Shown piece by piece: positions 13,150 through 36,480 of a DNA stretch of 36,480 nt (within the stretch, counting starts at the first letter, position 1; every line of letters starts with the position of its first letter). The notes under the pieces are model-generated. The model worked only from the letters and a program-made list of their open reading frames with translations. It was not told where the DNA came from and did not search any database. A program made the position numbers and the translations under genes. The stretch comes from Burkholderiales bacterium. GTDB taxonomy: Bacteria > Pseudomonadota > Gammaproteobacteria > Burkholderiales > SG8-41. The DNA lies in assembly GCA_044378065.1 (NCBI GenBank), contig JBILYA010000001.1, positions 1 to 36,480 of the forward strand. The letters run 5' to 3'.

Positions 13150-13154
13150 CGGAT

Positions 13155-13181
13155 AAAAAAGCCGGCGCAGGCCGGCTTTTT
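13155..13181 (-). terminator. intrinsic terminator downstream of xsc (symmetric, A-run/T-run on both sides)
   Basis: AAAAAA-GCCGGC-gcag-GCCGGC-TTTTT. On the minus strand the GC stem is followed by TTTTTT, 17 nt after the xsc stop. Confidence 0.6.
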
Positions 13182-13198
13182 CCTGAGTGGCACGGTGA

Positions 13199-14962: not shown

Positions 14963-15093
14963 TGGGAATTTCCTCCGGATATAGAAGCGCGCCGTGCCCG
15001 TCTGCTTCGCGGACTGCGGCAACCTGAAAGACCTGCCTTCCCGGTCATGGGTCGCTCCGGGAGTCACGAATGATACGATGCCCCGCCATTGCG

Positions 15094-15128
15094 TGTAAAC
15101 GCTTGCATGAAGAATGGTAAACCGTTGT
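15094..15128. promoter_or_regulatory. two LacI/GalR-type operator-like sites in the xsc / dehydrogenase divergent region
   Basis: TGTAAACGCTTGCA (15094-15107) has 10 of 14 positions symmetric around a central CG, close to the family pattern TGnAAnCGnTTnCA. A degenerate second copy, TGGTAAACCGTTGT, lies at 15115-15128. Confidence 0.4.
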
Positions 15129-15316
15129 TTTTAAATGGGATTGTTGTCGGTGGCGGGAATTCGCCCCAAGTACCAAGCCCTTGTTTTGGCAGTGATTTCA
15201 TGACCTCCGGCGGCTCAAGTTACAATCACCGCGACGCCATGATATCCAGCGCCACCCCTGCCGTTTTCCCCGGAGCACCATTGAACGCCCCCGTTGAAGG
15301 TCATCGTCTGCCAGTC

Positions 15317-18223: not shown

Positions 18224-18226
18224 TCC

Positions 18227-19003
18227 GTGACCGGTCTCGAAACGCTGTCGCCGTGGGTGATCGTCTACGTTGCGATCGTCATTGCCGTCGCCGGCTGGAT
18301 CCAGGGTGCGCTCGGCCTGGGCTTCCCGATGATCGCCACGCCGCTGATCGCCGCGGCAACCAATATGCAGTTCGCGGTGGTCATGGTGGTAATTCCCTGC
18401 ATTGCCACGGTCATCGTCAGCATCCTGCGCAGTCCCGGATCCGCCGGCGTGGTGAAGCGATTCTGGTGGATATCCATCGTGGCACTGCTTGGCGCCGCCG
18501 TCGGCGCGCGGCTGTTCGTCATGTTTCCGGGATTCCCTTACGCGCTGCTGCTGGCCGGCGTGATCCTGTTCTATCTCAACCTCGACCGTCTCGGACTGTC
18601 AGAGTGGCCGATCATGAAGCGCAACGAAAAGAAATTCGGCCTGCTGTTCGGATTTCTCGGCGGGCTCAGTGAAACCACCGCCAATATCGCGGCGCCGCCG
18701 CTGATCATCTATTACCTCGGCATCGGCCTGCCGCCGCTGATGCTGGTACCGGCAATGAACATTTCCTTCTTTGTCGGAAAATCCACGCAGCTCGCAACGC
18801 TGATGGCCAGCGGCATCGCCACACCGATGCACTGGCTGGTCACGCTGCCGCTGGCGGTGATCGCCACCATCGCCAGCCTCTACGGCTCGCGCGTGCGCAG
18901 CCGCATCGACGGAGAAACTTACCGCGTCTGGATGAAGCGCCTGCTGCTGACCATGGCGATGATTCTTCTGGCGCAGGTCGCCTGGCGCCAGCTGCTGGCG
19001 TAA
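18227..19003 (+). CDS. TauE/SafE (DUF81) family anion/sulfite exporter-like membrane protein
   Basis: 258 aa with 7-8 hydrophobic helices and Gly-rich motifs (GWIQGALGLGFPMIATPL; FGFLGGLSETTANIAAPPLII). The GTG start is 3 nt after the dehydrogenase stop. Confidence 0.7.
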   Translation: MTGLETLSPWVIVYVAIVIAVAGWIQGALGLGFPMIATPLIAAATNMQFAVVMVVIPCIATVIVSILRSPGSAGVVKRFWWISIVALLGAAVGARLFVMFPGFPYALLLAGVILFYLNLDRLGLSEWPIMKRNEKKFGLLFGFLGGLSETTANIAAPPLIIYYLGIGLPPLMLVPAMNISFFVGKSTQLATLMASGIATPMHWLVTLPLAVIATIASLYGSRVRSRIDGETYRVWMKRLLLTMAMILLAQVAWRQLLA

Positions 19004-23603: not shown

Positions 23604-24596
23604 TCAATTTTGTTCATTGTCCATGCGCTGGCCTGCCGCATAGAGCTTGATGTTTTCGGTGAAGATTTTTGCGGCGCGGATATCGTTGCCGGAGGACGCC
23701 GAGGCGTTGTGCGGCGAGACGATGACGTTGGGGATGTCCCACAGCGGCGAATCGGCCGGCAGCGGTTCTTTTTCGAACACATCGAGGTAAGCACCCGCGA
23801 TCTGTTTCGATTGCAACGCGGCAATCAGCGCTTTCTCGTCGGCACAGCCGCCGCGCGCCACGTTGACCAGATAGGAATGTTTCGGCATCAGTGCCAGGGT
23901 TTTGGCGTTGACCAGCTGATGCGTTTCCTTGGTGTACGGGCAGGCCAGTACCAGCCAGTCGCACTTCGGCAGCAGTTTCGGCAGTTTGTCGAGCGTGTGC
24001 ATTTCATCAACCGGATCACCCGCGCGCTTCGGGCTGCGGCGCAGACCAATGACTTTCATTTCCAGCGCCTGGCACATCTTGGCCACCGTCGCGCCGATGG
24101 TGCCGAGTCCGACAACAATTACCGTCTGGCCGCGCAAATCACGGGGCACGGCATCGCCGCGAGCGGGGTCCCATTTGCGTTCGCGCTGCGCGGCGATCCA
24201 GCGCGGAAAATTGCGCGCCAGCATCAGCAGGCCGCACACCGCCGTATGACCGACGGGTTCACCGTTGGAACCGGCGGAAGTCGTCAGCCGCACCTTGCGC
24301 TCATGCAGTGCCGGCAGGAAGGGGTGCTGGTCGATGCCGGTGCTGACGAAGTTCGCCCACTTCAGATTCGTCGCCGCCTTGACGGTATCGCCGTAACTTT
24401 CATACAGATTCGAAAACCGGATGTCGCGCGTCAGATACGCCACTTCGATTTTCGCGATCACGTCCGCGGACAGGCGCTGCGCGGGGTCATCGGGCAGGTG
24501 AATGATTTCCGGCGTCACACCGGCGGCCTTCACCGCCGCCTTCAGCTCGGCGCCGAACTGCGCCACAAACCCCTTGGATACCAGAATGCCCTTCAT
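23604..24596 (-). CDS. NAD(P)-dependent D-isomer-specific 2-hydroxyacid dehydrogenase family protein
   Basis: 330 aa with the Rossmann motif VIVVGLGTIGATVAKM and the catalytic pattern VNVARGG ... LDVFEKEP ... VIVSPHNA (Arg-Glu-His triad context). Confidence 0.85.
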   Translation of the reverse strand: MKGILVSKGFVAQFGAELKAAVKAAGVTPEIIHLPDDPAQRLSADVIAKIEVAYLTRDIRFSNLYESYGDTVKAATNLKWANFVSTGIDQHPFLPALHERKVRLTTSAGSNGEPVGHTAVCGLLMLARNFPRWIAAQRERKWDPARGDAVPRDLRGQTVIVVGLGTIGATVAKMCQALEMKVIGLRRSPKRAGDPVDEMHTLDKLPKLLPKCDWLVLACPYTKETHQLVNAKTLALMPKHSYLVNVARGGCADEKALIAALQSKQIAGAYLDVFEKEPLPADSPLWDIPNVIVSPHNASASSGNDIRAAKIFTENIKLYAAGQRMDNEQN

Positions 24597-24626: not shown

Positions 24627-25532
24627 TCAGCTCTTGTCGCGCTTGAACAGCGCGTCGAGCTTTTGTTCGTAATCGTGATAGTCGAGGTAGTCGTAAAGAT
24701 CATCACGCGACTGCATCAGGTCGACCACGTTTTTCTGGTGACCGTCCTTGCGGATGTGCTGGTAAACCTTCAGCGCTGCGGCATTGGCGGCGCGCCATGC
24801 TGACAGCGGATACAGCGCCAAGCCGACATTCGCGCTGGCCAGTTCCTCAATCGTGAACAGCGGCGTCTTGCCAAACTCGGTGATGTTGGCGAGGATCGGC
24901 ACCTTCACCGCATCGGCGAATTTTTTGTACATCGGCAGATCGGTGATCGCTTCCGGGAAAATCATGTCGGCGCCGGCTTCGACGCAGGCCACGGCGCGTT
25001 CAATCGCGGCGTCCAGCCCTTCGATCGCCAGCGAATCGGTGCGGGCGATGATGACAAAGTTGGAATCGGTCTTGGCATCGGCAGAAGCCTTGATGCGGTC
25101 AACCATCTCGTCCTTGCTGACGATTTCCTTGTTGGGACGGTGACCGCAGCGTTTCTGCATGACCTGGTCTTCGATGTGCATCGCCGCGGCGCCGAACTTG
25201 ATCAGCGATTTGACGGTGCGGGCGATATTGAAAGCGCCGCCGAAACCGGTGTCGACGTCGACCAGCAGCGGCAGATCGCAGACATCGGTAATGCGACGAA
25301 CGTCGGTCAGCACATCGTCCAGCGTGGAGATCGCCAGATCCGGCACGCCCAGCGAGCCCGCGGCGACACCGCCGCCGGACAGGTAGATGGCCTTGAAGCC
25401 GCTGCGCTTGGCAAGCCGCGCGTGATAGGCATTGATCGCACCGACGATCTGCAGCGGTTTTTCAGCGGCGAGGGCGGCACGGAAACGGGCGCCGGCCGAA
25501 TCGGGGACGCTGGTTTTGGAACGATCGGTCAT
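24627..25532 (-). CDS. prpB: 2-methylisocitrate lyase-like enzyme (isocitrate lyase / PEP mutase superfamily, PrpB-like)
   Basis: 301 aa counted from ATG 25532, with the SD AGGAG 8 nt upstream. Long stretches match my recollection of E. coli PrpB: [86 protein letters not shown]. Confidence 0.85.
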
Positions 25533-25718
25533 GAACAAAGCTCCTGTAGAAATAAAGATGGCAGCCTGCGCTGCCGGAATTGAATTTTGGGTTTGCGGTG
25601 AATCGGTAAAGTAAAAAGTAAGTGACGGTCAGACAGTCCGATCAAATTCCGGGATGGCGGCAGGGATTTTAGCGGCTTCTGCCCGGCCGGCCGGGCTAGG
25701 GGCGGGCCATCCGGCACC

Positions 25719-25735
25719 TGTCCGGTATCTGGACA
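25719..25735. promoter_or_regulatory. 17-bp imperfect palindrome in the prpB / iclR divergent intergenic region (candidate IclR-type operator)
   Basis: TGTCCGG-tat-CTGGACA has 6 of 7 arm positions complementary. It lies in a 320-bp relatively AT-rich intergenic region. A CATAAT -10-like hexamer is at 25813-25818. Confidence 0.25.
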
Positions 25736-25852
25736 AATTGATTTTAAAGGCCAAAAATATGCCCTAAAAAGATAGCATAAGACAGGCTATTCCGCTAGGG
25801 CAGACACGGTGGCATAATCCCCGCTCCCAAGTCTCACGATTCGGACTAAGTT

Positions 25853-26662
25853 ATGGCCATGGCAAATAATTCCGGCGACGATTCACAAGGTCGCCTCACC
25901 GGTACCCAAAGTATTGAGCGCGCGCTGCTGCTGCTCCGCGAGATCGCCGCGCATAATCGCGCGGGCTCCCGCCTGCTGGATCTGGCGACACGCACCAACC
26001 TGCAACGGCCGACCGTGCATCGCATGTTGAAGTGCCTGGCTCACGAAGGCATGGTGCAGCAGGATTCGGAAACCCACCGTTATTTCCTCGGCCCCATGGC
26101 TTTCGAGCTGGGTCTGACCGCGGCACCCCGCTTCAACCTGCGCGAAATCTGTCATCCGGCGATGACGCGCATCGCCGAAGCGACCGGTGACACGGTGTTC
26201 CTGACCCAGCGCAGCGGTCTCGATGCGGTATGCATCGACCGTCACGAAGGCACCTTCCCGATCAAAACCTTCACCCTGGAAGTCGGCATGCGCCGGCCGC
26301 TGGGCGTCGGCACCGGCAGCCTCGCCATTCTGGCCGCGCTTCCGGAAGATGAGTTCAAAGGCATCATCACCAGCAACGAACCGCGCCTGCAGGAGCACGG
26401 CCTCAACGGCCCGACGCTGATGTCGCAGGCGCGCAAGGCGCAAAAGCTGGGTTACGCCGTTCGTGAAACGCCGACGCTGGCAGGAGTACGTTCGATCGGT
26501 CAGGCGCTGCGCAACCAGAGCGGCGTGCCGTTCGCGTCGCTGTCGATTTCGGCAATTTCCAGCCGCATGGCCGACCGCCGCGTGCAGGAACTGGCAACCA
26601 TCCTGCGCAATGAAGCCCGCCTGATCGAGCGCCAGATCGCCAACGGCATGGAAATCCGCTGA
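25853..26662 (+). CDS. IclR-family transcriptional regulator
   Basis: 269 aa. The N-terminal winged HTH is SIERALLLLREIA...LLDLATRTNLQRPTVHRMLKCL and the C-terminal effector domain is GVGTGSLAILAALP ... GYAV ... ASLSISA. Confidence 0.85.
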   Translation: MAMANNSGDDSQGRLTGTQSIERALLLLREIAAHNRAGSRLLDLATRTNLQRPTVHRMLKCLAHEGMVQQDSETHRYFLGPMAFELGLTAAPRFNLREICHPAMTRIAEATGDTVFLTQRSGLDAVCIDRHEGTFPIKTFTLEVGMRRPLGVGTGSLAILAALPEDEFKGIITSNEPRLQEHGLNGPTLMSQARKAQKLGYAVRETPTLAGVRSIGQALRNQSGVPFASLSISAISSRMADRRVQELATILRNEARLIERQIANGMEIR

Positions 26663-26719
26663 CGCTGCAGTCGTCCGGGTCTCCGGCGTTGCGGCCATAA
26701 CAACAACGAGGAGAGATCA

Positions 26720-27685
26720 ATGAGAATACTGTCGCGCACACTCGTCGCACTGCTGCTCGCCGTCTGTGCGGGCGGTGTTTACGCGCAAGCCTGGCCGTCC
26801 AAACCGATCCGCTTTGTCGTTCCTTATCCGCCCGGCGGCAGCAATGATGTGCTGACACGCATCACCGCGCAGGCGATGGCCCCGGGCCTCGGTCAGCAGA
26901 TCGTCATCGACAATCGCGGCGGTGCCGGCGGCATGATCGGCGCCGATCACGTCGCGAAGTCGGCACCCGACGGCTACACCATCGTCAACGTGCAGGCGTC
27001 GTTCACCGCCAATGCCGCATTGCGCCAGAAAATGGCCTACGACCCGATGGCTGACTTCGCCTATATCGGCATGATGGCGCGCGGCCCCCTGCTTGCCGTG
27101 GTCCATCCCTCGCTGCCGGTGAAAAACATCCGCGAACTGATCGCGCTGGCCAAGGCCAAGCCCGGCCAGATCAACTACGGCTCGACCGGTACGGGCGGCC
27201 ACAATCACATGGCCACTGAACTGTTCAAGCGCATGGCCAATATCAATATCGTGCATGTGCCTTACAAAGGCGTTGCCCCTGCGTTGACCGATCTGATGGG
27301 CGGCCATACGCAAATGGTGATGACCAGTCTGCCCTCGGCGATGACATCGGTGCAGGCCGGACGCCTGAAAGCGCTCGCCGTCGGCAGTGAAACTCGTTCC
27401 GGATTCATGCCGGAACTGCCAACCATCGCCGAATCCGGCGTGCCCGGTTACATGGCTGAATTCTGGTGGGGCCTCGCCGCACCGGCAAAAACGCCGAATG
27501 ACATCATCAACCGCCTCGCCACCGAGCTGACCAGGGCCCTGCAGTCCCCGGACCTGAAACAGAAGTTCGCCGGCGAAGGCTCCGAACCCAGCGTAATGTC
27601 GCGCGAACAGTTCACCAAATTCGTCAATAACGAGATCGTGCGCTGGCGCAAAGTTGCGCAGGACTCCAATATCAAGCCGGAGTAA
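26720..27685 (+). CDS. Bug-family (TctC-like) tripartite tricarboxylate transporter substrate-binding protein, copy 1
   Basis: 321 aa with a signal peptide (LVALLLAVCAGGVYAQA) and Bug hallmarks: WPSKPIRFVVPYPPGGSNDV, DNRGGAGG, HVPYKG. The SD GAGGAGAG lies upstream. Confidence 0.9.
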   Translation: MRILSRTLVALLLAVCAGGVYAQAWPSKPIRFVVPYPPGGSNDVLTRITAQAMAPGLGQQIVIDNRGGAGGMIGADHVAKSAPDGYTIVNVQASFTANAALRQKMAYDPMADFAYIGMMARGPLLAVVHPSLPVKNIRELIALAKAKPGQINYGSTGTGGHNHMATELFKRMANINIVHVPYKGVAPALTDLMGGHTQMVMTSLPSAMTSVQAGRLKALAVGSETRSGFMPELPTIAESGVPGYMAEFWWGLAAPAKTPNDIINRLATELTRALQSPDLKQKFAGEGSEPSVMSREQFTKFVNNEIVRWRKVAQDSNIKPE

Positions 27686-27755
27686 TTGATGCTGGCCGGT
27701 CGCAGACCGGCCTCCGCAGCGTGCTTGCAGCAACCCTTTCCGCTCAGGAGAGCCC

Positions 27756-28742
27756 ATGATCCGCCGCCCCGTTTTGCCTGTCGCACTGTCCCTGCTGTCA
27801 GCCGCCGTACTGATCGCCTGCGCGATGCCCGCTTCAGCACAGCAAAGCTATCCTTCCAAAACCATCCGCTTCCTCGTCGGCGCGCCGCCCGGCGGCAGCA
27901 ATGATCTTTTTGCACGCGCCATCGGCCAGCAGATGCAGCCGGCGATCGGGCAGCAGGTCATCGTCGATAACCGCCCCGGCGCGAACCAGATGATCGCCGC
28001 CGAGATCATGGCCAAATCGCCGCCGGACGGACACACGATCTACATCACCTCGACCTCGTTCACTACCGGTGCGGCGCTGCAGCCCAAACTACCCTTTGAT
28101 CCGGTCGCCGACGTCGCCGGCGTGACCATGGTCGGCCAGGGCCCACTGGTGTATGTGATCCATCCCTCACTGCCGGCCAAAAACATGAAAGAGCTGATCA
28201 CCATCGCCCGCGCCAAACCGGGTCAGCTCAATTTCACCTCGTCGGGCATCGGCGGCATCAACCACCTCGGCACCGAGGTGCTGTTGTCGATGGCGAAAAT
28301 CAACATGGTCCATGTGCCGCACAAGGGCATGTCGCCGGCGCTGACCGACCTGATGAGCGGTCAGGTGCAGGTGCTGCTGGTCAGTCTGCCTTCAGTGACC
28401 GGCCAGATGAAATCGGGACGCCTGCGCGCACTCGCGGTCAGCACCGCGAAGCGCACCGCGTTCATGCCGGAACTGCCGACGGTCGCCGAATCGGGCATAC
28501 CGGGTTATGACGTGTCGCTGTGGTGGGGCGTATTTGCCCCGGCGAAAACGCCGAAGCCGGTGATGGACCGCCTCAACACTGAGATCCATAAAGCCATGTC
28601 CTCGGAGGTGATGAAGCGACATTTCGCCGAGTTCGGCGCCGAAGCCGCACCGATGACACCGGATGCGTTCAGCGCGAAAGTTAAAACCGAGATCGACAAC
28701 TGGCGCAAAGTAATCCAGGCCGCCAACATCAAGGCCGAGTGA
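27756..28742 (+). CDS. Bug-family (TctC-like) substrate-binding protein, copy 2
   Basis: 328 aa with a signal peptide and the motifs YPSKTIRFLVGAPPGGSNDL, DNRPGAN and HVPHKG. It is roughly half identical to copy 1 by eye. SD CAGGAGAG. Confidence 0.9.
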   Translation: MIRRPVLPVALSLLSAAVLIACAMPASAQQSYPSKTIRFLVGAPPGGSNDLFARAIGQQMQPAIGQQVIVDNRPGANQMIAAEIMAKSPPDGHTIYITSTSFTTGAALQPKLPFDPVADVAGVTMVGQGPLVYVIHPSLPAKNMKELITIARAKPGQLNFTSSGIGGINHLGTEVLLSMAKINMVHVPHKGMSPALTDLMSGQVQVLLVSLPSVTGQMKSGRLRALAVSTAKRTAFMPELPTVAESGIPGYDVSLWWGVFAPAKTPKPVMDRLNTEIHKAMSSEVMKRHFAEFGAEAAPMTPDAFSAKVKTEIDNWRKVIQAANIKAE

Positions 28743-29992
28743 TGGCGACGCTCCCTCGCAGAAATTACCAGCCCGGCGCGAAAGGCACGCTGAACAGTGT
28801 GCGCGTGCTCGATCTGTCCCGACTGGTCGCCGGCAACATGCTGACGCAGTTCCTCGCCGACTTCGGTGCAGAAGTGATCAAGGTTGAACCGCCCGCCGGC
28901 GACACGCTGCGCGCCTGGAAAACCAAAGACGTCCAGATCAACTGGAAAATCTACGCCCGCAGCAAAAAAAGTCTGGGACTGGAACTGCGCAAAACCGAAG
29001 CGCGCGAGCTGCTGAAAAAGCTGATTCCGTCGGCACAGATCTTCATCGAGAGTTTCCGCCCCGGCACACTGGAAAAAATGGGCCTCGGCCCGAAAGAACT
29101 GCTGAAGCTGAATCCGCAACTGGTGATCGTGCGCATCTCCGGCTGGGGCCAGGAAGGCCCTTACAGCAAACGCCCAGGTTTCGGCACCTTGGTCGAAGGC
29201 ATGTCGGGCTTCGCCTCATTCAACGGATTTGCCGACCGCGAACCGGTACTGCCGCCGATGTATCTCGCCGACACCGTGGCCGGGCTTTACGGTGCAGCGG
29301 CAGTGATGACGGCCTTGCGTGAAGTCGAAGTCAACAAGGGCAAAGGTCAGATCATCGACCTGCCGCTGCTCGATCCGATGTTTGCGGTGCTCGGACCGCA
29401 GGCGGCCAACTTCCGGCTCACCGGCAAGGTGAAGCCGCGCACCGGCAGCCGCTCGACCAATGCCGGACCGCGCAATGCATACAAATGCAAGGATGGCCTG
29501 TTTGTCTGCCTGTCGTCATCGACGCAGAAAATGGCCGAGCGGCTGTTCCGCTCGATCGGCCACCCCGAATTCATCACCGATCCGCGTTACGCCACCAATG
29601 CCGAACGCGTGAAACATGCCGAAGAGCTCGATGCGGTGATCGGCGCTTTCATCGCGCAGCGCACGCAGGCCGAGAACGTCACCTTTTTTGAACAAGCGGA
29701 AGTCACCATCGGTCCGATCTACGACATCCGGCAGATTTTTGAAGACCCGCATTTCCTCGCACGCGAACTGCTTGCCGATTACCCCGACAACGACATGGAC
29801 AGCTTCCCGATGCACCATGTCGTGCCGCGCCTGTCGGGCACGCCGGGATCGATCCGCACTCCGGCGCCGCAACTGGGCGAGCATAACCTCGACCTCTTGC
29901 GCGAAGCGGGTGTCGATGACGAGGCTTATGCCAAACTGCTGGCCGCAGGCATCGCCTGCGCCGGCGATGCCGCCAAACCGGAAGAAGAATAA
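28742..29992 (+). CDS. family III (CaiB/BaiF/Frc-type) acyl-CoA transferase, copy 1
   Basis: 416 aa with the N-terminal signature VRVLDLSRLVAGNMLTQFLADFGAEVIKVEPPAGD. ATG 28742 overlaps the Bug2 stop (TGATG). Confidence 0.9.
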   Translation: MATLPRRNYQPGAKGTLNSVRVLDLSRLVAGNMLTQFLADFGAEVIKVEPPAGDTLRAWKTKDVQINWKIYARSKKSLGLELRKTEARELLKKLIPSAQIFIESFRPGTLEKMGLGPKELLKLNPQLVIVRISGWGQEGPYSKRPGFGTLVEGMSGFASFNGFADREPVLPPMYLADTVAGLYGAAAVMTALREVEVNKGKGQIIDLPLLDPMFAVLGPQAANFRLTGKVKPRTGSRSTNAGPRNAYKCKDGLFVCLSSSTQKMAERLFRSIGHPEFITDPRYATNAERVKHAEELDAVIGAFIAQRTQAENVTFFEQAEVTIGPIYDIRQIFEDPHFLARELLADYPDNDMDSFPMHHVVPRLSGTPGSIRTPAPQLGEHNLDLLREAGVDDEAYAKLLAAGIACAGDAAKPEEE

Positions 29993-30001
29993 ACAAATAA
30001 T

Positions 30002-30028
30002 AAAAAAATGCAGCCCGGCTGCAGTTTT
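30002..30028 (+). terminator. weak intrinsic terminator after CoA-transferase 1
   Basis: AAAAAAA-TGCAGC-ccg-GCTGCA-GTTTT forms a 6-bp stem with a 3-nt loop. An AT-rich stretch follows up to 30093. Confidence 0.4.
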
Positions 30029-30093
30029 GCCGAACTTGAATTTTTTTGTCCTTACTACTTTTGTATTTTTTTGATCACTGCGAAGGATGCCCC

Positions 30094-31002
30094 ATGTATC
30101 GTGAACTCCCCGTCTGGCGCTCGTTGATGTACGTCCCGGTCAACGTTGAAAAATTCGTCGACAAGGCCCACACCCGCGGCGCCGACGTGATCCAGCTCGA
30201 CATCGAAGACAGTGTGCCGCCGGCGGAAAAAGCCAATGCGCGCAAGCTGGTCGAGAAAAATGCGGCGCGCGTCAAACGCGGTGGCGCCGACGTCGTGGTG
30301 CGCATCAATCAGCCGCTGTCGCTCGCGGTGCGCGACATCGAAGAATCGATCTGCCCTGACGTCAACGGCATTGCCATCACCAAGGTGTCCGGCGTATCGC
30401 ATGTGCAGCTGCTCGACGAGTTGGTCAGCGAACTCGAACAGAAACGCGGCATGACCGTCGGCCACACCAAATTCATCGGCATGATCGAAACCCCGGAAGC
30501 GTTTTTCAAGATCCGCGAAATCACCACGGCGAGCAGCCGCATGGTCGCCTGCAATATCGGCGGCGAAGACTTCGCGCTGAACTGCAATATGCAGCCCACC
30601 GGCGAAGCGCTGTTCTACCCCAAGCAGCACATGGTCATCGCCGCCAATGCTGCGGGCATGATGCCGCTGGGTTTCATCGACAGCGTCGCCACCTTCGGCG
30701 ACTGGGAAAACTTCCGCAAGATGGTGCGCCGTTCGCGCGATTTCGGTTTCATGGGCGCGGGCTGCATCCATCCCGGTCAGGTCACCATCGTCAACGAGGA
30801 ATACAAACCGAGCACTGCCGAAGTGGAATACGCGCGCAAGGTCATCGCGCTGGATAAGGAAGCAGCCGCTGCGGGCCGCGGTTCGTTCGCGCTCGACGGC
30901 AAGATGATCGACATTCCGATCATCGTCCGCGCTGAACGCCTGCTCAAACGCTTTGAAGCCATCACGGCGCGCGAAGCGCAGACACTTGCGGCGATGAAGT
31001 AA
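30094..31002 (+). CDS. HpcH/HpaI aldolase / citrate lyase beta (CitE)-like acyl-CoA lyase (citramalyl-/malyl-CoA lyase type)
   Basis: 302 aa counted from ATG 30094, with the SD GAAGGA 6 nt upstream. It has the family pattern RSLMYVPVNVEKFVDKAHTRGADVIQLDIEDSV and later EDF and DGKMID motifs. Confidence 0.85.
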   Translation: MYRELPVWRSLMYVPVNVEKFVDKAHTRGADVIQLDIEDSVPPAEKANARKLVEKNAARVKRGGADVVVRINQPLSLAVRDIEESICPDVNGIAITKVSGVSHVQLLDELVSELEQKRGMTVGHTKFIGMIETPEAFFKIREITTASSRMVACNIGGEDFALNCNMQPTGEALFYPKQHMVIAANAAGMMPLGFIDSVATFGDWENFRKMVRRSRDFGFMGAGCIHPGQVTIVNEEYKPSTAEVEYARKVIALDKEAAAAGRGSFALDGKMIDIPIIVRAERLLKRFEAITAREAQTLAAMK

Positions 31003-31015
31003 GACTTTGCGGCCA

Positions 31016-31040
31016 CCGTGCGGGGCTCAACCCCGCACGG
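31016..31040 (+). terminator. strong GC hairpin between the lyase gene and Bug3 (attenuator, terminator or RNA-stabilising element)
   Basis: CCGTGCGGGG-ctcaa-CCCCGCACGG forms a perfect 10-bp stem, 13 nt after the lyase stop. The downstream tract CGATTCTCTTTC is only partly U-rich. Confidence 0.35.
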
Positions 31041-31115
31041 CGATTCTCTTTCAGCAGCACCTCGGCTAGGATGTGGCGTCGCGATGGCAATCCGCCATAT
31101 GCACGTGGAGGGGTT

Positions 31116-32087
31116 ATGAAAAATATTATTAAAATCAATGGTTTATTGTTTTCTGCGCTGATGCTCACGGCGCTGCCGGTGTATGCACAAACCGTGGCGA
31201 AATTTCCGGTCAAGCCGGTACGCATCATCGTCGCTTTCCCGCCGGGCAGTTCGACCGACATCGTCGCCCGTGTTGTCGGCGAACGCCTGACCGAAATCTG
31301 GGGCCACAACGTCATTGTTGAAAACCGTCCCGGGGCTTCGGGCAACATCGGCACCCAGGTCGCATTGCGCGCCAACCCCGACGGCCACACGCTGCTGATG
31401 AACAGTTCGGCAATTGCGGTCAACGTCAGCCTGTATTCAAAACCCGGTTATGCAATGAAGGACCTTGCGCCCATCCTGCAGGGCCCGACGACGCCCAACC
31501 TGATCACCGTCCATCCGTCGGTGAAAGCGAAAACGCTGCAGGAACTGATCGCGCTGGCGAAGACGACGCCGTTGAGCTACGGCTCTTCGGGCACCGGCAC
31601 CACGCCGCACCTCGATATGGAACTGCTGTTCAAGTCGCTGGCGAAAGTCGATATCACCCACGTGCCGTACAACCCGGCAGCGGCTGCCACCGCTGTGGTC
31701 GCCAACCAGGTGCCGGTGGGCTCGACGTCGATGCCGCCGGCCGTGCCCCATGTCAAAAGCGGCCGCCTGCGCGCCATTGCAGTGACCTCGGCGAAACGTT
31801 CAGGCGTGCTGCCGGATGTGCCGACGGTGGCTGAATCGGGTTTTCCGGGCTTTGATGACGGCACCTGGTTCTCGGTATTCGCACCAGCCGGGATTTCTGC
31901 CGCCGTGGTCAATCAGGTCAATCGCGACTTCAGCACGGCACTGCAGTCACCGGCGGCGAAAGAACGCCTGGCCGCGCTGTCGCTGGAATTCACACCGAAC
32001 ACGGCCGCTGAATTTGCCGCCCGCCTGAAAACAGAAGTCGACAAATACGCGCAGATCGTCAAGCAGTCCGGCGCACGGGTGGATTGA
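31116..32087 (+). CDS. Bug-family (TctC-like) substrate-binding protein, copy 3
   Basis: 323 aa counted from ATG 31116, with the SD GGAGGGG upstream. It has a signal peptide (LLFSALMLTALPVYAQ) and the motifs FPVKPVRIIVAFPPGSSTDI, ENRPGASG and HVPYNP. Confidence 0.9.
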   Translation: MKNIIKINGLLFSALMLTALPVYAQTVAKFPVKPVRIIVAFPPGSSTDIVARVVGERLTEIWGHNVIVENRPGASGNIGTQVALRANPDGHTLLMNSSAIAVNVSLYSKPGYAMKDLAPILQGPTTPNLITVHPSVKAKTLQELIALAKTTPLSYGSSGTGTTPHLDMELLFKSLAKVDITHVPYNPAAAATAVVANQVPVGSTSMPPAVPHVKSGRLRAIAVTSAKRSGVLPDVPTVAESGFPGFDDGTWFSVFAPAGISAAVVNQVNRDFSTALQSPAAKERLAALSLEFTPNTAAEFAARLKTEVDKYAQIVKQSGARVD

Positions 32088-32094
32088 CCGGCTC

Positions 32095-32946
32095 ATGCGC
32101 AACGTCAGTGAATCCAGCATCACGCAGGCAGTCGTCGCTTCTTTCGATGGCGCCACGGATCCGCGCTTTCGCCGGATCATTGAAAGCCTGACGCGCCACC
32201 TGCACGCCTTCGCACGCGAGGTTGACCTGACGCCGGAAGAATGGAAGGCCGGTATTGATTTTCTCTACCGCGCCGGACAGATTTCGGATGAAAAGCGCAA
32301 CGAATTCATCCTGACATCCGACGTGCTCGGCCTGTCCTCGCTGGTCGACATGCTGCAGAGCGACGCCGGCGCCACCGAACGCAGTGCATTGGGGCCTTTT
32401 CATTCCGAGGGTTCTCCGGCGCTCGCGGTGGGCGGTGATCTCAAGCAGGACAACGATGGCGAACCGCTGCTGGTACACGGCCGCGTGCTGGATGAAGACG
32501 GCAAGCCGGTTGCCGGCGCACAGCTCGATTTCTGGCAGGCCGCTGTCAACGGCAAATACTGGCAACAGGACCCGGCACAGGATCCGCACAACCTGCGTTT
32601 CCGCATGACCACCGGCGACGATGGCGTGTATGCGTTCACCACCGTGCAGCCCGCCCCGTACAGCGTGCCCTATGACGGTCCGGTCGGCGATCTGCTTCGC
32701 GCCGGCGGCCGCCACGCCTGGCGCCCGGCGCATTTTCATTTCATTGTCGGCGCACCTGGTTTCCGCCCGCTGACCACCGAGGTGTTTTTCTCCGGCGATC
32801 CCTATCTCGACAGCGACGCCATCTTCGGCGTTCGCGAGTCGCTGGTGGTCACGGTCGCCCCCAATACGGATGCAGCACTGGCGAAACGCTACAACCTGGC
32901 GTCGCCTTTTCTCAACGTGGCCTTCGACTTCCGCCTGGGCCGCTGA
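32095..32946 (+). CDS. intradiol ring-cleavage dioxygenase (catechol / hydroxyquinol 1,2-dioxygenase family)
   Basis: 283 aa. The N-terminal helical dimerisation segment is DPRFRRIIESLTRHLHAFAREVDLTPEEWKAGIDFL. The core has GPFH, LLVHGRVLDEDGKPVAGAQLDFWQA, GVYAFTTVQPAPYSVP and the Fe-ligand motif GRHAWRPAHFHF. Confidence 0.85.
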   Translation: MRNVSESSITQAVVASFDGATDPRFRRIIESLTRHLHAFAREVDLTPEEWKAGIDFLYRAGQISDEKRNEFILTSDVLGLSSLVDMLQSDAGATERSALGPFHSEGSPALAVGGDLKQDNDGEPLLVHGRVLDEDGKPVAGAQLDFWQAAVNGKYWQQDPAQDPHNLRFRMTTGDDGVYAFTTVQPAPYSVPYDGPVGDLLRAGGRHAWRPAHFHFIVGAPGFRPLTTEVFFSGDPYLDSDAIFGVRESLVVTVAPNTDAALAKRYNLASPFLNVAFDFRLGR

Positions 32947-33013
32947 ATCCGCACCGCGGGCACGCGGTGCCGTAAAATTGCAAATTCTCCTGTAACAACG
33001 AGGTTAGTGACGC

Positions 33014-33865
33014 ATGTCTGCAGAACTGGAATCCCTGAAGGAATGGATCGGCCGCACCGAAACCGCGATTGATTATGTGACCGTCCCCGCCGTCAACCGT
33101 CTGTCAGCGACCCTTGATCGCGACGATGCCTTCCCGAAAATGGGCGATCCGCTGCCGGTCGGCTGGCATTCCACCCTGTTCCCGCGCGTGGTACGCCATT
33201 CGCAGATCGGTCCCGACGGGCATCCGGCTCGCGGCGACTTCCTGCCGCCGGTACCGCTGCCGCGGCGCATGTTCGCCGGCAAGCGCACGACCTTCATCGC
33301 GCCGCTGCATATCGGCGACGAAGTGCACCGCCTGTCGACCATCCAGAACGTCACCATCAAGGACGGACGCAGCGGGCGCATGGTCTTCGTCACCGTGAAG
33401 ACCGACATCAAAAACGCCAAGGGCGTGGCGATCAGCGAGGAGCAGGACATCGTCTACCGCGGCGAGCCTGACAAGAATGCACCGCCGCCCCCGCCACAGC
33501 CCGCGCCGGGCAAGGCGGTGTGGCAGCACCAGGTCACGCCCGATCCGGTAATGCTATTCCGTTATTCCGCACTGACCTTCAACGGCCACCGCATTCATTA
33601 CGACCATCCTTATGTCACCGGCGTCGAGGGATATCCCAACCTGGTGATGAACGGCGGACTGACCACACTGCTGGTGTACGAACTGGCGCGCACCCATGCA
33701 TCGACACCGATCAGGTTCATGTCCTCGCGCAATGTGCGCGCCCTGTTCGTTGGCCGCACCATCACGCTTTGCGGTGAACCGTCGGCAGACAACAAGACGG
33801 CGAAGCTGTGGGCGCAGGATGACACCGGCGCGCTGGCGCTGACTGCCGAAGCGGAGTTCATCTAA
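33014..33865 (+). CDS. double-hotdog MaoC-like / FAS1-like (R)-specific enoyl-CoA hydratase-dehydratase family protein
   Basis: 283 aa in two halves joined by a Pro-rich linker (NAPPPPPQPAPG). The C-terminal half has FRYSALTFNGHRIHYD and NLVMNGGL, typical of MaoC/HTD2-type hydratases. Its size and architecture resemble itaconyl-/mesaconyl-CoA hydratases. Confidence 0.7.
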   Translation: MSAELESLKEWIGRTETAIDYVTVPAVNRLSATLDRDDAFPKMGDPLPVGWHSTLFPRVVRHSQIGPDGHPARGDFLPPVPLPRRMFAGKRTTFIAPLHIGDEVHRLSTIQNVTIKDGRSGRMVFVTVKTDIKNAKGVAISEEQDIVYRGEPDKNAPPPPPQPAPGKAVWQHQVTPDPVMLFRYSALTFNGHRIHYDHPYVTGVEGYPNLVMNGGLTTLLVYELARTHASTPIRFMSSRNVRALFVGRTITLCGEPSADNKTAKLWAQDDTGALALTAEAEFI

Positions 33866-35079
33866 TGGCCGGCGGTCCTCTCGAGGGAGTACGTATTGTC
33901 GACCTGACATCAGTCGTGGTCGGTCCGCTCGCGACGCAGATCCTCGCCGACCACGGTGCGGAAGTGATCAAGGTCGAAACCAAAAGCGGCGACCTGATCC
34001 GCCACATGAACGGCAAGTCGGTAACGCCGGGCATGGGCGCGAAATTCCTGCACCTCAATCGCAACAAGCGCTCGCTGGTGCTCGATCTGAAAAATCCCGC
34101 CGGTCACGCCGCGCTGATGAAGCTGATCGAAAAAGCCGACGTGCTGGTGTGGAACGTGCGGCCACCGGCGATGGCGCGACTCAAGCTGTCGTATGAGGAT
34201 GTGCGCAAGGTCAATCCCGGCATCATTTACTGCGGCATGTTCGGCTTCGGCCAGGATGGCCGTTATCGCGAGAAACCCGCTTACGACACCATCATCCAGG
34301 GTTCCGGCGGCATGGCGGCGCTGCATCACCGTGCGATGGGTGAACCGCGCTTCGTACCGATGGTGGTCGCCGACAAGACGGTCGGTCTGATTGCGGTGCA
34401 GATGATTGCGATGGCGCTGTACCGCAAGGCCAAAACCGGCGAAGGCTGCTCGATCGAGATTCCGATGTTCGAGAATCTGGTCAAGTTCGTGCTCGAAGAA
34501 CATATGTACCTGAAAACCTTCGACCCGCCGCTCGGTGAAACCGGTGATCCGCGCCTGCTGGATCCGCTGGGTAAGCCGATTCCGACCAAGGACAGCTATA
34601 TCTGCATCTCCGCCAACACCAATGATCAGGCCTTCGGCTTTTTTGATGTCATCGGCCGGCCGGAATTAAAAACCGATCCGCGCTTCAGCAGCGTACAGGC
34701 GCGTTTCGCCAATGTTGCCGCCTATTTCGAAGTGCGCATGGCTGCGCTGAAAAGCAAAACCACTGCAGAGTGGCTGGAACTGTTTGATGCGGCAGACGTG
34801 CCGGCGATGCCCTATCACACGCTCGACAGCGTGCTCGAAGATCCGCATCTGAAGGAAATCGGATTCTTCGAGATGAAAGACCATCCGACCGAAGGCCGCA
34901 CACGCAATATGCGACTGCCGAACAAATGGTCCTGTGGCGTGCGCGAAGGCTGGAATCCGGCGCCGAAACTCGGTGAGCAGAGCGTCGAGATTCTGCGTGA
35001 AGCCGGATTGTCCGAAGCCGAAATCCAGGCACTGCTCGATACCGGTGCCACCACCGACGGACGCATTAAAAAGACCTAA
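33865..35079 (+). CDS. family III (CaiB/BaiF/Frc-type) acyl-CoA transferase, copy 2
   Basis: 404 aa with the signature VRIVDLTSVVVGPLATQILADHGAEVIKVETKSGD. ATG 33865 overlaps the hydratase stop (TAATG). Confidence 0.9.
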   Translation: MAGGPLEGVRIVDLTSVVVGPLATQILADHGAEVIKVETKSGDLIRHMNGKSVTPGMGAKFLHLNRNKRSLVLDLKNPAGHAALMKLIEKADVLVWNVRPPAMARLKLSYEDVRKVNPGIIYCGMFGFGQDGRYREKPAYDTIIQGSGGMAALHHRAMGEPRFVPMVVADKTVGLIAVQMIAMALYRKAKTGEGCSIEIPMFENLVKFVLEEHMYLKTFDPPLGETGDPRLLDPLGKPIPTKDSYICISANTNDQAFGFFDVIGRPELKTDPRFSSVQARFANVAAYFEVRMAALKSKTTAEWLELFDAADVPAMPYHTLDSVLEDPHLKEIGFFEMKDHPTEGRTRNMRLPNKWSCGVREGWNPAPKLGEQSVEILREAGLSEAEIQALLDTGATTDGRIKKT

Positions 35080-35106
35080 AAGCCCCGCGGGGCGAAGGAG
35101 AAATAA

Positions 35107-36087
35107 TTGAATAATATCAAGTATTTAGCTTCTATCGTCCTGCTGGGTGTTTTGACAGTCGGAACGGCCCTGGCGCAGACCGCGGCCAACTTTCCGAACA
35201 AGCCCGTGCGTTTCATCGCCCCCTTCCCGCCGGGCGGCAGCACCGACACGCTGGCGCGACTGGTCTCCTTGCGGCTTTCCGAGATGTGGGGTCAACAGGT
35301 CGCCGTTGAAAACCGCGGCGGCGCCGGCGGCACTATCGGTGTCGAACTGGCGGCGCGCGCAGCGCCCGACGGTTACACCATCGTCATGGGCCATGTCGGC
35401 ACCTTCGGTTTCAATCCGACGCTGTATCCCAAACTGCCATACGACGCGATCAAGGATTTCGCGCCGATCACCATCCTTGCGACAGTGCCCAACGGCATGG
35501 CGGTGCATCCGTCACTGCCGGTCAAAACCGCGCGCGACTTTGTCGCTCTTGCTAAGTCCAAACCGGGTGAGCTGCTGTATGCCTCAGGCGGCAGCGGCAG
35601 CGCCTCGCATCTGGCCGGCGAATATTTCCGCCTGCTCACCAAGATCAATATGGTGCACGTACCGTACAAAGGCACCGGGCCGGCAATGATCAGCATGATT
35701 TCCGGACAGACCACGATGACCATCACCGGCATGGTCGCCCTGATGCCGCACGTCAAATCGAATCGCCTCAAACTGCTCGGTGTAGCGACGATGAAACGTC
35801 TCGCGATCCTGCCGGACGTGCCCACCATCAACGAAAGCGGCGTTCCGGGTTATGACGCCAATCAATGGTACGGCGTGCTGACGCAGGCAGCCGTGCCCCG
35901 CGACATCGTCGCCAAGCTGCATGCGGATATCGTCAAGGTACTGGCGCGGCCGGACATCAGGGAACGCCTCGCCGCCGACGGCGCAGAACCCGTCGCCAAT
36001 ACGCCCGATCAGTTCGCCGCGCACATCAAATCGGAGATTGCGCGCTGGGCACCGGTAGTCAAAGCCTCGGGCGCCAAACCGGACTGA
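35107..36087 (+). CDS. Bug-family (TctC-like) substrate-binding protein, copy 4
   Basis: 326 aa with a TTG start at 35107 and the SD AAGGAG 6 nt upstream. There is no nearby in-frame ATG. It has a signal peptide (IVLLGVLTVGTALAQ) and the motifs FPNKPVRFIAPFPPGGSTDT, ENRGGAGG and HVPYKG. Confidence 0.9.
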   Translation: MNNIKYLASIVLLGVLTVGTALAQTAANFPNKPVRFIAPFPPGGSTDTLARLVSLRLSEMWGQQVAVENRGGAGGTIGVELAARAAPDGYTIVMGHVGTFGFNPTLYPKLPYDAIKDFAPITILATVPNGMAVHPSLPVKTARDFVALAKSKPGELLYASGGSGSASHLAGEYFRLLTKINMVHVPYKGTGPAMISMISGQTTMTITGMVALMPHVKSNRLKLLGVATMKRLAILPDVPTINESGVPGYDANQWYGVLTQAAVPRDIVAKLHADIVKVLARPDIRERLAADGAEPVANTPDQFAAHIKSEIARWAPVVKASGAKPD

Positions 36088-36162: not shown

Positions 36163-36480
36163 ATGCCTTCGTTCGTTCGTCACTCGCTGTTGACTCTGTC
36201 ACTGACCGCCCTGCTGATTGCCCCGGCCCATGCGCAAAACACCGGCGCTGAATTCAAGCCGCAGGTCGGCCAGGCCGGCAAGGATGTGATCTGGGTACCG
36301 ACCCCGAAGAGCCTGGTCGAAAAAATGCTGAAAATGGCCGACGTCAAACCCACGGATGTCGTGTTCGATCTCGGTTCGGGTGACGGCATCACGGTGATTA
36401 CCGCTGCCAAGCAGTTCGGCGTGCGCGCCACCGGCATTGAATACAACCCGGACATGGTGGAGCTGTCGAAGCGCAACGCA
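36163..36480 (+). CDS. class I SAM-dependent methyltransferase with N-terminal signal-peptide-like segment; 3' end lies outside the window (not in the ORF track)
   Basis: My manual translation from ATG 36163 (SD GGAGA 5 nt upstream) gives MPSFVRHSLLTLSLTALLIAPAHAQNTGAEFKPQVGQAGKDVIWVPTPKSLVEKMLKMADVKPTDVVFDLGSGDGITVITAAKQFGVRATGIEYNPDMVELSKRNA. The SAM motif I is VFDLGSGDG and post-I is GIEYNP. The frame is open to the window end. Confidence 0.75.
   Translation, partial: MPSFVRHSLLTLSLTALLIAPAHAQNTGAEFKPQVGQAGKDVIWVPTPKSLVEKMLKMADVKPTDVVFDLGSGDGITVITAAKQFGVRATGIEYNPDMVELSKRNA

Follow-up and report, generated by a model that had tools for sequence, protein, structure and literature searches.

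Modular architecture of a catabolic operon in an uncultured freshwater Burkholderiales bacterium: a core for CoA-ester chemistry with an optional dioxygenase cassette

Introduction

What is degraded by a gene cluster in which enzymes of coenzyme A (CoA) ester cleavage stand together with a ring-cleaving dioxygenase and four periplasmic receptors? This question is raised by a 10-kb locus on contig JBILYA010000001.1 of a Burkholderiales genome assembly (GCA_044378065.1). The stretch analysed here, positions 1 to 36,480 of that contig, is called the window throughout, and the locus occupies its positions 25853-36087. We found that the locus, a catabolic operon in an uncultured Burkholderiales bacterium from fresh water, is built of modules; this anatomy is new information and the observation is solid. 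Concerning its function, we tentatively propose, at a probability somewhat below even, that a polyhydroxy-aromatic acid is taken up, its ring is opened, and the resulting muconate-type compound is linked to CoA, hydrated and split as the thioester.

Gene clusters of the itaconate/methylsuccinate type, encoding Ict, Ich and Ccl, have been characterised (PMC12290011). According to the same study, true Ict orthologues are approximately 60% identical between genera, and C. necator possesses additional Ich and Ccl paralogues that were assigned to other, unknown pathways. An earlier, first-pass annotation of the window, made from the letters of the DNA, had compared the locus to this cluster type and had been unable to map it onto a described pathway. 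We examined the locus by profile searches, by comparison to solved structures and by the analysis of related loci in genomes and metagenomes.

Gene content and gene models

Ten plus-strand open reading frames (ORFs) were found at 25853-36087, in agreement with the ten co-directional genes read before, and Pfam and NCBIfam profiles bore out the family that had been named for each of them. The genes are, in order:

25853-26662, + strand: IclR-family regulator (PF09339, PF01614), gene 1 of the operon
26720-27685, + strand: Bug1, TctC-family periplasmic solute receptor (PF03401, 4e-76), signal peptide visible
27756-28742, + strand: Bug2, TctC-family receptor (PF03401, 2e-67), signal peptide visible
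28742-29992, + strand: CoA-transferase 1, family III, 416 residues (PF02515, 5e-114), core
30094-31002, + strand: CitE-type acyl-CoA C-C lyase, 302 residues (PF03328, 9e-27), core
31116-32087, + strand: Bug3, TctC-family receptor, 323 residues (PF03401), cassette gene 1
32095-32946, + strand: hydroxyquinol-type intradiol (Fe3+) dioxygenase (PF04444, PF00775), cassette gene 2
33014-33865, + strand: Ich-type double-hotdog (R)-hydratase, 283 residues (PF13452), core
33865-35079, + strand: CoA-transferase 2, family III, 404 residues (PF02515, 9e-101), core
35107-36087, + strand: Bug4, TctC-family receptor (PF03401, 9e-68), signal peptide, last gene of the operon

The two overlaps described previously are present, TGATG at 28740-28744 (Bug2 stop and CoA-transferase 1 start) and TAATG at 33863-33867 (hydratase stop and CoA-transferase 2 start). 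The lyase most likely starts at the ATG at 30094, which is preceded by GAAGGA and gives 302 residues, and not at the ORF start at 30046, and Bug3 most likely starts at 31116, giving 323 residues. Both revised starts agree with the gene calls on metagenome contigs that have an identical hydratase. The G+C content of the window is approximately 61%.

A stable core and an optional cassette

A lyase-anchored set of related loci was collected by look-ups of lyase homologues (83-84% identity) and by a metagenome scan, and the 35 loci showing both the lyase and the hydratase were counted. The same gene order recurs in approximately 30 species-level metagenome-assembled genomes (MAGs) and on many metagenome contigs, which is beyond chance. 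A check of the neighbourhood had been suggested before; it revealed that the core recurs beside prfA, hemA and prpB in dozens of MAGs and contigs (type I, see below), the hosts being uncultured freshwater Burkholderiales. The comparison defines a stable unit consisting of the IclR regulator, CoA-transferase 1, the lyase, the hydratase, CoA-transferase 2 and a variable number of Bug receptors. The gene pair of Bug3 and the dioxygenase is an optional cassette that is inserted between the lyase and the hydratase. It is present in 13 of the 35 loci, and the gap between lyase and hydratase is then approximately 2.0 kb. Thus, the ten genes do not form one indivisible unit, and CoA-transferase 1 is no addition to an itaconate-like triad but part of the conserved core.

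Part of this comparison weighs against our proposal, which demands that the cassette feeds the core. The cassette is not present in 22 of the 35 loci, and in 13 of these the lyase and the hydratase are separated by 151 bp or less (11 bp in the smallest case). One cassette-free locus (L094) consists, next to a divergent prpB, of the genes for IclR, lyase, hydratase and CoA-transferase 2. Two others (L102 and L106), whose lyase is 91-92% identical to that of the window, have the order IclR, Bug1, CoA-transferase 1, lyase, hydratase, CoA-transferase 2 and Bug4, and a sibling of these two (L101) does have Bug3 and the dioxygenase. Most of the distant relatives possess the core without a dioxygenase as well. 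Since the core occurs without it, the native substrate of the core is independent of ring cleavage. Moreover, the junction between lyase and hydratase is demonstrably an insertion hot spot. Other loci contain MmgE/PrpD-like genes or extra Bug genes there, another genome has at this place a block of 6 kb that brings its own regulator, of the LysR type, and in two loci (L012, L019) a CcdA/CcdB-like toxin-antitoxin pair of approximately 700 bp, recognised by reading the translations and not by a profile search, sits between the lyase and Bug3, precisely at the cassette's left border. In the window, hairpins lie on both sides of the cassette:

31016-31040, + strand: strong GC hairpin at the left junction, stem of ten pairs, nine of them G-C, top-scoring plus-strand terminator-like site
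approximately 32951-32970, + strand: GC hairpin at the right junction, read from the sequence

Because unrelated DNA enters the same junction, co-location alone is weak evidence for a common function.

All this is what one would expect if two unrelated functions shared one operon, the main rival explanation, which we regard as possible, although on the unlikely side. The core would then serve an ordinary C4-C6 aliphatic dicarboxylate (mesaconate, citraconate, maleate or an acid of the glutarate/adipate type, for example), which it would activate, hydrate and cleave. The cassette would be self-contained and would have landed in the hot spot, and its ring-cleavage product would be handled by enzymes encoded elsewhere. 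The sister clades of the dioxygenase fit in with this, as their partners are not CoA enzymes but RutE-type reductases, 3HCDH dehydrogenases, HpcH aldolases and FAH-family enzymes. The evidence that speaks against an unrelated insertion comes from the genomic company of the dioxygenase itself.

Genomic company of the dioxygenase

For a dioxygenase-anchored set, one genome per species was scanned with an alignment of the dioxygenase. This gave 80 loci, nearly all of which are MAGs of uncultured Burkholderiales or Betaproteobacteria. Gene content was scored by tblastn with the window proteins, GC3-based gene calls being unreliable at approximately 70% G+C. The lyase or the hydratase is near the dioxygenase in 46 of the 80 loci, and all five enzymes are present in 30. 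An uptake gene of the TTT or TRAP type was detected in 64 loci and a Bug3 homologue in 54, even where the dioxygenase is just 49-56% identical.

Four arrangements can be distinguished. In type I, which is that of the window, prfA, hemA, in some cases a 2-hydroxyacid dehydrogenase gene, and prpB are divergent from the operon, which reads IclR, Bug1, (Bug2), CoA-transferase 1, lyase, Bug3, dioxygenase, hydratase, CoA-transferase 2 and Bug4 and is followed 3' of Bug4 by genes for a methyltransferase, a 3HCDH-family protein and AsmA; the chromosomal site is always the same. Type II is found at another site and has the order Bug, CoA-transferase 1, lyase, RutE-like gene, Bug3 and dioxygenase; the genes for hydratase and CoA-transferase 2 are found at a distance of a few kb. 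In type III, DctMQP and GntR genes are divergent from the dioxygenase, a RutE-like gene, sometimes an HpaI-type aldolase gene, and a 3HCDH-family gene, and the CoA genes are absent. Type IV (L075, L079, L083), a distant lineage, comprises a CoA-transferase of another kind and a citrate-synthase-type gene (citryl-CoA-lyase-like), divergent from the dioxygenase, and occurs in Meiothermus, in Rhodomicrobiaceae and in the isolate Pararhodobacter marinus.

Neighbour-joining groups the CoA-linked dioxygenases in one clade and places the dioxygenases adjoining a maleylacetate reductase (C. necator N-1 plasmid pBB2, B. multivorans), which have 46-50% identity, outside of it. Wherever flanks are visible, no dioxygenase of the CoA-linked clade was seen apart from CoA genes. 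The dependence is therefore one-way, as the core occurs without the dioxygenase and the clade dioxygenase was not seen without CoA genes, which argues for a link between cassette and core. The association holds in type I, in type I loci that have an additional MmgE/PrpD-like gene and in the rearranged type II, at least three arrangements in all, and has thus outlasted several rearrangements and a move to a second chromosomal locus. Two loci (L018, L020) have lost all Bug genes, and the dioxygenase still stands between lyase and hydratase in a bare operon of IclR, CoA-transferase 1, lyase, dioxygenase, hydratase and CoA-transferase 2. In another one (L044), the start of the MmgE/PrpD-like gene overlaps the stop of the dioxygenase gene by 4 bp, so that translation of the dioxygenase is coupled to that of the following operon gene. 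Further, the cassette has neither a regulator of its own nor an alternative downstream enzyme for a ring-fission product nearby: tblastn searches with two maleylacetate reductase queries and a PcaF-like thiolase found no match in the window and approximately 165 related loci. Finally, in type IV the dioxygenase has independently been joined by a CoA-transferase and by a non-homologous enzyme resembling citryl-CoA lyase. Each of these points favours a functional link, and all but the last one also speak against an unrelated insertion.

The clade is also recognisable from single residues. The compared CoA-, TRAP- and citrate-synthase-linked dioxygenases have L99, Y193, R202, A208 and E229 in common, whereas the two reductase-linked dioxygenases compared have F/V, T, D/N, P and H at these positions. 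The FAH-linked branch (L072, L082, L076) keeps L99 and E229 but not Y193 and R202, and residue 229 is Gln in the cycloisomerase-linked dioxygenase that was compared. The partners in the sister clusters, namely a RutE-type malonic semialdehyde reductase (equivalog 260 bits, cut-off 152), an HpaI-type aldolase, FAH-family enzymes and, in Pacificitalea, malonyl-CoA synthase and decarboxylase, may hint at a 2-hydroxymuconate-type product and thus at a pyrogallol- or gallate-type substrate, but this is speculation.

Some of the related loci have features of their own. On plasmid pDY25-C of Pacificitalea manganoxidans DY25 (L086, 39415-58269), the dioxygenase cluster comprises YciI, a FAH-family enzyme, a RutE-like reductase, TRAP genes, the dioxygenase and a divergent GntR gene, and it is adjoined by genes for malonyl-CoA synthase and decarboxylase. 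Four type II loci (L047, L038, L041, L050) have a GGDEF diguanylate cyclase and a methyl-accepting chemotaxis protein among the catabolic genes, which may serve chemotaxis or signalling towards the same substrates; an HMG-CoA-lyase-like gene is paired there with a third CoA-transferase. An operon on pBB2 of the cultured strain C. necator N-1 (L088/L091, 14836-23820) encodes a CoA ligase, a citryl-CoA-lyase-like protein, two YciI proteins, a maleylacetate reductase, oxidoreductases, an amidohydrolase and a hydroxyquinol-type dioxygenase. It is another uncharacterised link of CoA chemistry to the hydroxyquinol pathway.

The core enzymes and the itaconate cluster

The lyase covers the PF03328 profile in full (positions 1-221 of 221; HpcH/HpaI-CitE fold). 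Among solved structures, it is closer to malyl-CoA/beta-methylmalyl-CoA lyase (5ugr, 1.5e-35) than to Ccl of P. aeruginosa (8khl, 7.5e-23), CitE and CLYBL being further matches, and it stays under all curated NCBIfam cut-offs (180 bits with the model citE). The hydratase can be aligned end to end with the itaconyl-CoA hydratase of P. aeruginosa (8khg/8huc, 4e-57), and the curated NCBIfam models gave no match to it. The best solved relative of CoA-transferase 1 is the succinate-hydroxymethylglutarate CoA-transferase (SUGCT) 9br6 (4e-57), and its score on the succinate-glutarate CoA-transferase model is 252 bits (cut-off 750). CoA-transferase 2 matches 10uh (formyl-CoA-transferase-like, 1e-48) and SUGCT (5e-48). 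The two transferases are mutually 30% identical. BhcR is the best NCBIfam match of the IclR regulator (117 bits, well under the cut-off of 350), which is 72-100% identical across all type I loci.

The logic of transferase, hydratase and lyase that the first-pass annotation had recognised is right, the hydratase being a clear homologue of the P. aeruginosa enzyme. The equation of the triad as a whole with Ict, Ich and Ccl could not be upheld. We used the complete itaconate/methylsuccinate-type cluster of Variovorax paradoxus as a reference. The hydratase is 49% identical to the copy in this cluster and 45-49% identical to characterised or cluster-embedded Ich proteins in general. However, CoA-transferases 1 and 2 share only 28% and 31% identity, respectively, with the Ict of V. 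paradoxus, far from the level found among true Ict orthologues, and the lyase shares 31% with Ccl and reaches 121 bits on the RipC_Ccl equivalog NF038242 (cut-off 375). As the hydratase alone is close and the transferases and the lyase are distant paralogues, the locus is not an itaconate cluster, and a canonical cluster of this kind was rejected on the NCBIfam scores and the V. paradoxus identities. There are indeed common features beyond the three enzyme families (family III transferase, double-hotdog hydratase, CitE-type lyase) and their three-step logic, since a TctC gene also lies beside the C. necator cluster (PMC12290011) and some relatives of the window possess MmgE/PrpD-family genes. 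In contrast to the itaconate cluster, the operon possesses two core transferases, an IclR regulator, up to four Bug receptors and an embedded intradiol dioxygenase, and an acyl-CoA dehydrogenase is absent. The MmgE/PrpD-like gene of the relatives is just 26% identical to the copy in the V. paradoxus cluster, and the additional Ich and Ccl paralogues of C. necator were assigned to other pathways. Orthology to the itaconate/methylsuccinate clusters PA0878-PA0883 of P. aeruginosa and E6A55_22580-22600 of C. necator is therefore very improbable.

Another system with comparable chemistry is the mesaconyl-CoA module of the 3-hydroxypropionate bi-cycle and the methylaspartate cycle (Mct, Meh/Mch, Mcl). 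It shares with the operon a Meh/Ich-type hydratase and a malyl/citramalyl-CoA lyase, and its two family III transferase roles, intermolecular and intramolecular from C1 to C4, resemble the pair of transferases in the window. However, both transferases score far below the cut-offs of the mesaconyl-CoA transferase equivalogs (57-62 bits on TIGR04253, cut-off 725; 163-169 bits on NF041294, cut-off 700), the context in the window is catabolic and not assimilatory, and organism and regulation differ.

Which compound is cleaved by the dioxygenase?

The gene had been annotated as an intradiol dioxygenase. The family is confirmed, but the assignment has to be revised to a hydroxyquinol-type enzyme in a separate clade with its own genomic context. 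The best solved matches are PnpC (3n9t, 2e-76; 55% identity) and hydroxyquinol 1,2-dioxygenase (1tmx, 2e-69), followed by catechol 1,2-dioxygenases (approximately 1e-42), and Y155, Y189, H213 and H215, probably the ligands of the iron, do not vary among the relatives. In fold, iron ligands and best matches, the enzyme is thus like those of the hydroxyquinol pathway (PnpC, TcpC/TcpD, C. necator N-1 pBB2, B. multivorans). It differs from this pathway in that maleylacetate reductase and a hydroxylase are not nearby in the 80 dioxygenase loci, and in that the partners of the clade are carboxylate receptors together with CoA enzymes, RutE/3HCDH-family or FAH-family enzymes.

Three points have to be added here to those that count against our proposal. 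Given the similarity to PnpC, plain hydroxyquinol, which is no carboxylate, is the simplest guess for the substrate. Cleavage of hydroxyquinol gives a product without the 3-carboxyl group on which enzymes of the Ich and CitE types normally depend. Further, none of the window ORFs checked encodes a hydroxylase or decarboxylase forming a triol or hydroxyquinol.

If plain hydroxyquinol were the starting compound, the dioxygenase would form maleylacetate and CoA-transferase 1, as a glutarate/adipate-type enzyme, the 3-oxoacyl-CoA. A thiolase encoded elsewhere would yield acetyl-CoA and maleyl-CoA, which the hydratase would convert to malyl-CoA and the lyase to glyoxylate and acetyl-CoA. Besides the similarity of the dioxygenase to true hydroxyquinol dioxygenases, several nearest relatives fit such a route, namely those of CoA-transferase 1 (SUGCT and succinate-glutarate transferases), of the lyase (malyl-CoA lyases) and of the IclR regulator (the glyoxylate-linked BhcR), and a glyoxylate-reductase-like dehydrogenase is encoded in the flank, although these matches are under the cut-offs. 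We nevertheless consider this route improbable. The thiolase that it needs was not found in the window or the fetched loci, a hydroxylase forming hydroxyquinol is not present in the window, and hydroxyquinol is no carboxylate, yet the dioxygenase clade travels with carboxylate receptors. Ich-type hydratases are known solely for 3-carboxy-branched enoyl-CoA esters, which is a further argument against it.

The Bug receptors

All four Bug receptors match PF03401 with E-values from 1e-55 to 4e-76 and have a signal peptide. Bug2 is 52% identical to Bug1 and frequently missing in relatives, Bug4 is kept in most relatives, and Bug1 in most but not all. The best solved relatives of Bug3 are Bug27 (2qpq, 2e-60) and a terephthalate-binding protein (8hkb, 2e-53). 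The latter suggests an aromatic ligand for Bug3, and Bug27, the closest one, is a binder of nicotinate-type aromatic acids.

As had been noticed before, TctA and TctB are not encoded in the window: there is no ORF of the size and type of TctA, and all window ORFs of at least 400 residues fall into other families. The receptors would therefore have to dock on a TctAB membrane unit encoded elsewhere. TctC-family receptors in catabolic operons without TctA and TctB are a feature shared with the orphan TTT receptors TphC of Comamonas, which acts with TpiBA, and Bug27 of Bordetella. The receptors of the window differ from these in that the identity is just moderate and in that four paralogues are encoded in one operon.

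A proposed pathway

For the core, the chemistry of the enzyme families suggests a sequence of four steps. An unsaturated di- or tricarboxylate would be caught in the periplasm by Bug receptors and, after uptake, be activated by CoA transfer, probably with succinyl-CoA as the donor. Hydration at C3 by the hydratase, an enzyme of the itaconyl/mesaconyl-C4-CoA type, would then give a 3-hydroxy-3-carboxyacyl-CoA like citramalyl-, malyl- or citryl-CoA, which the lyase would split into acetyl-CoA and a 2-oxo acid. The second transferase might shift CoA between carboxyl groups or activate a second acid.

According to our proposal, Bug3 would bring in a polyhydroxylated aromatic acid (gallate, protocatechuate, or 2,4,5- or 2,3,4-trihydroxybenzoate), the dioxygenase would open its ring to a (carboxy/hydroxy)muconate-type acid, and the CoA core would degrade this product in place of maleylacetate reductase and the 3-oxoadipate route. 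We favour a carboxylated di- or trihydroxybenzene as the substrate because the receptors belong to carboxylate families and because Ich- and CitE-type enzymes use 3-carboxy-branched thioesters. That the cassette feeds the core is the weakest step and is suggested by the genomic association described above.

One may go further and ask whether the clade dioxygenase and the core constitute a so far undescribed CoA-dependent lower pathway for intradiol ring-fission products. This is doubtful, but not far-fetched. An imported polyhydroxybenzoate would be converted to a carboxymuconate-type tricarboxylate, this to a thioester, and the latter to acetyl-CoA and a 2-oxo acid, so that maleylacetate reductase and the beta-ketoadipate route would both be bypassed. 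The clade in question has the signature residues Y193, R202 and E229, was not seen together with maleylacetate reductase in the fetched loci, and mostly has carboxylate receptors in its vicinity.

Intergenic and regulatory DNA

Regulatory elements were derived from an alignment of 21 orthologous intergenic regions between prpB and iclR. Within the strongly conserved region 25719-25852, the following element, which was also flagged by a promoter and hairpin scan, is a candidate operator for IclR:

25719-25735, + strand: palindrome TGTCCGGTATCTGGACA, conserved in the prpB-iclR intergenic region, candidate IclR operator

The palindrome is followed 3' by a conserved -10-like element, GGCATAAT, and by the leader TCACGATTCGGAC, the reverse complement of which repeats the GTCCG half-site. 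The conserved region also holds the elements AAAAGATA and TATTCCGC.

A second intergenic element had been suspected in the AT-rich break behind CoA-transferase 1 (29993-30093), which had been described as terminator-like. There is indeed a hairpin in this spacer, but the best terminator-like site on the plus strand is the one at the left junction of the cassette:

30009-30023, strand not assigned: hairpin in the AT-rich spacer after CoA-transferase 1, lineage-specific

The break is no general feature of the locus either, as it is confined to the close kin of the window. The spacer between CoA-transferase 1 and the lyase has approximately 15-60 bp in most orthologous loci, and in two of them (L026, L029) approximately 15 bp. 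A division into two operons at the AT-rich gap was therefore rejected as a conserved feature, the spacer being short in relatives, and the genes on both sides of it probably formed one operon ancestrally.

Flanking genes and the rest of the window

The genes next to the operon are:

23604-24596, - strand: D-2-hydroxyacid dehydrogenase (PF02826), under all NCBIfam cut-offs, missing in several relatives
24627-25538, - strand: PrpB, 2-methylisocitrate lyase, divergent from the operon (equivalog 539 bits, cut-off 353; PDB 6t4v, 8.5e-144)
36163-36480, + strand: 5' part of a secreted S-adenosylmethionine-dependent methyltransferase-like gene, conserved right flank

The methyltransferase-like protein has a signal-peptide-like N-terminus and resembles DOT1 and protein-lysine methyltransferases. 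Beyond the window, its gene is followed by a 3HCDH-family gene (L001, 5476-7427), and the order methyltransferase, 3HCDH, AsmA is kept in type I loci. With the dehydrogenase that directly adjoins the dioxygenase in TRAP-type clusters, this 3HCDH-family protein shares 47% identity.

In type I loci, prpB always lies between hemA and the operon. It stands alone, as prpC, prpD and acnD were not found adjoining, and this arrangement is kept across the lineage. We considered prpB, the 2-hydroxyacid dehydrogenase gene and the downstream 3HCDH gene as members of the pathway and largely rejected them. Since all type I loci are at one site (prfA-hemA-...-AsmA), their adjacency can be ascribed to flank synteny, and the type II loci, at their other site, are without these three flank genes. 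The membership of prpB is doubtful and the D-2-hydroxyacid dehydrogenase is probably not part of the pathway. In one related locus (L092, ENA contig_8042), hemA and CoA-transferase 1 are in fragments, probably due to an assembly frameshift and not to pseudogenisation, and gene losses read from this contig call for caution.

The other genes of the window, which serve housekeeping or other unrelated functions, comprise hemYXDC, argH, two two-component systems, an Xsc/TauE group, prmC, prfA and hemA. The region 12118-19003 is a probable organosulfonate desulfonation group, which has the same neighbours in L092-L094:

12118-13269, - strand: LacI/GntR-type regulator
13199-15067, - strand: Xsc sulfoacetaldehyde acetyltransferase (equivalog 891 bits, cut-off 676)
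15089-18223, + strand: fused FAD-oxidase/Fe-S/CCG enzyme resembling YdiJ
18227-19003, + strand: TauE sulfite exporter

Conclusions

The earlier statement that no described pathway fits the locus still holds, all syntenic loci being MAGs or metagenome contigs. A syntenic cluster with a characterised substrate, which had been named before as a possible refutation, was not found. Likewise, the full-text literature yielded no paper on such a cluster and nothing relevant on muconate-type CoA esters or on hydroxyquinol in combination with CoA-transferases, MaoC or TTT. The question of the substrate is nonetheless directly testable, since related clusters with dioxygenases of the same clade exist in two organisms that are in culture, Pacificitalea manganoxidans DY25 and Pararhodobacter marinus CIC4N-9.

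Should the CoA core indeed receive the product of the dioxygenase, the aerobic degradation of aromatic rings would be completed by a new route, in which the ring-fission acid is handled as a CoA ester by itaconate-like enzymes and not by cycloisomerases or maleylacetate reductase. It would also provide a function for one of the many unexplained clusters of Bug receptors and family III CoA-transferases in Burkholderiales, in a group of abundant, uncultured lake bacteria whose food is acids of plant and humic origin. Should cassette and core be unrelated, we would still have a clear case of a stable catabolic operon that gathers optional cassettes at one junction.

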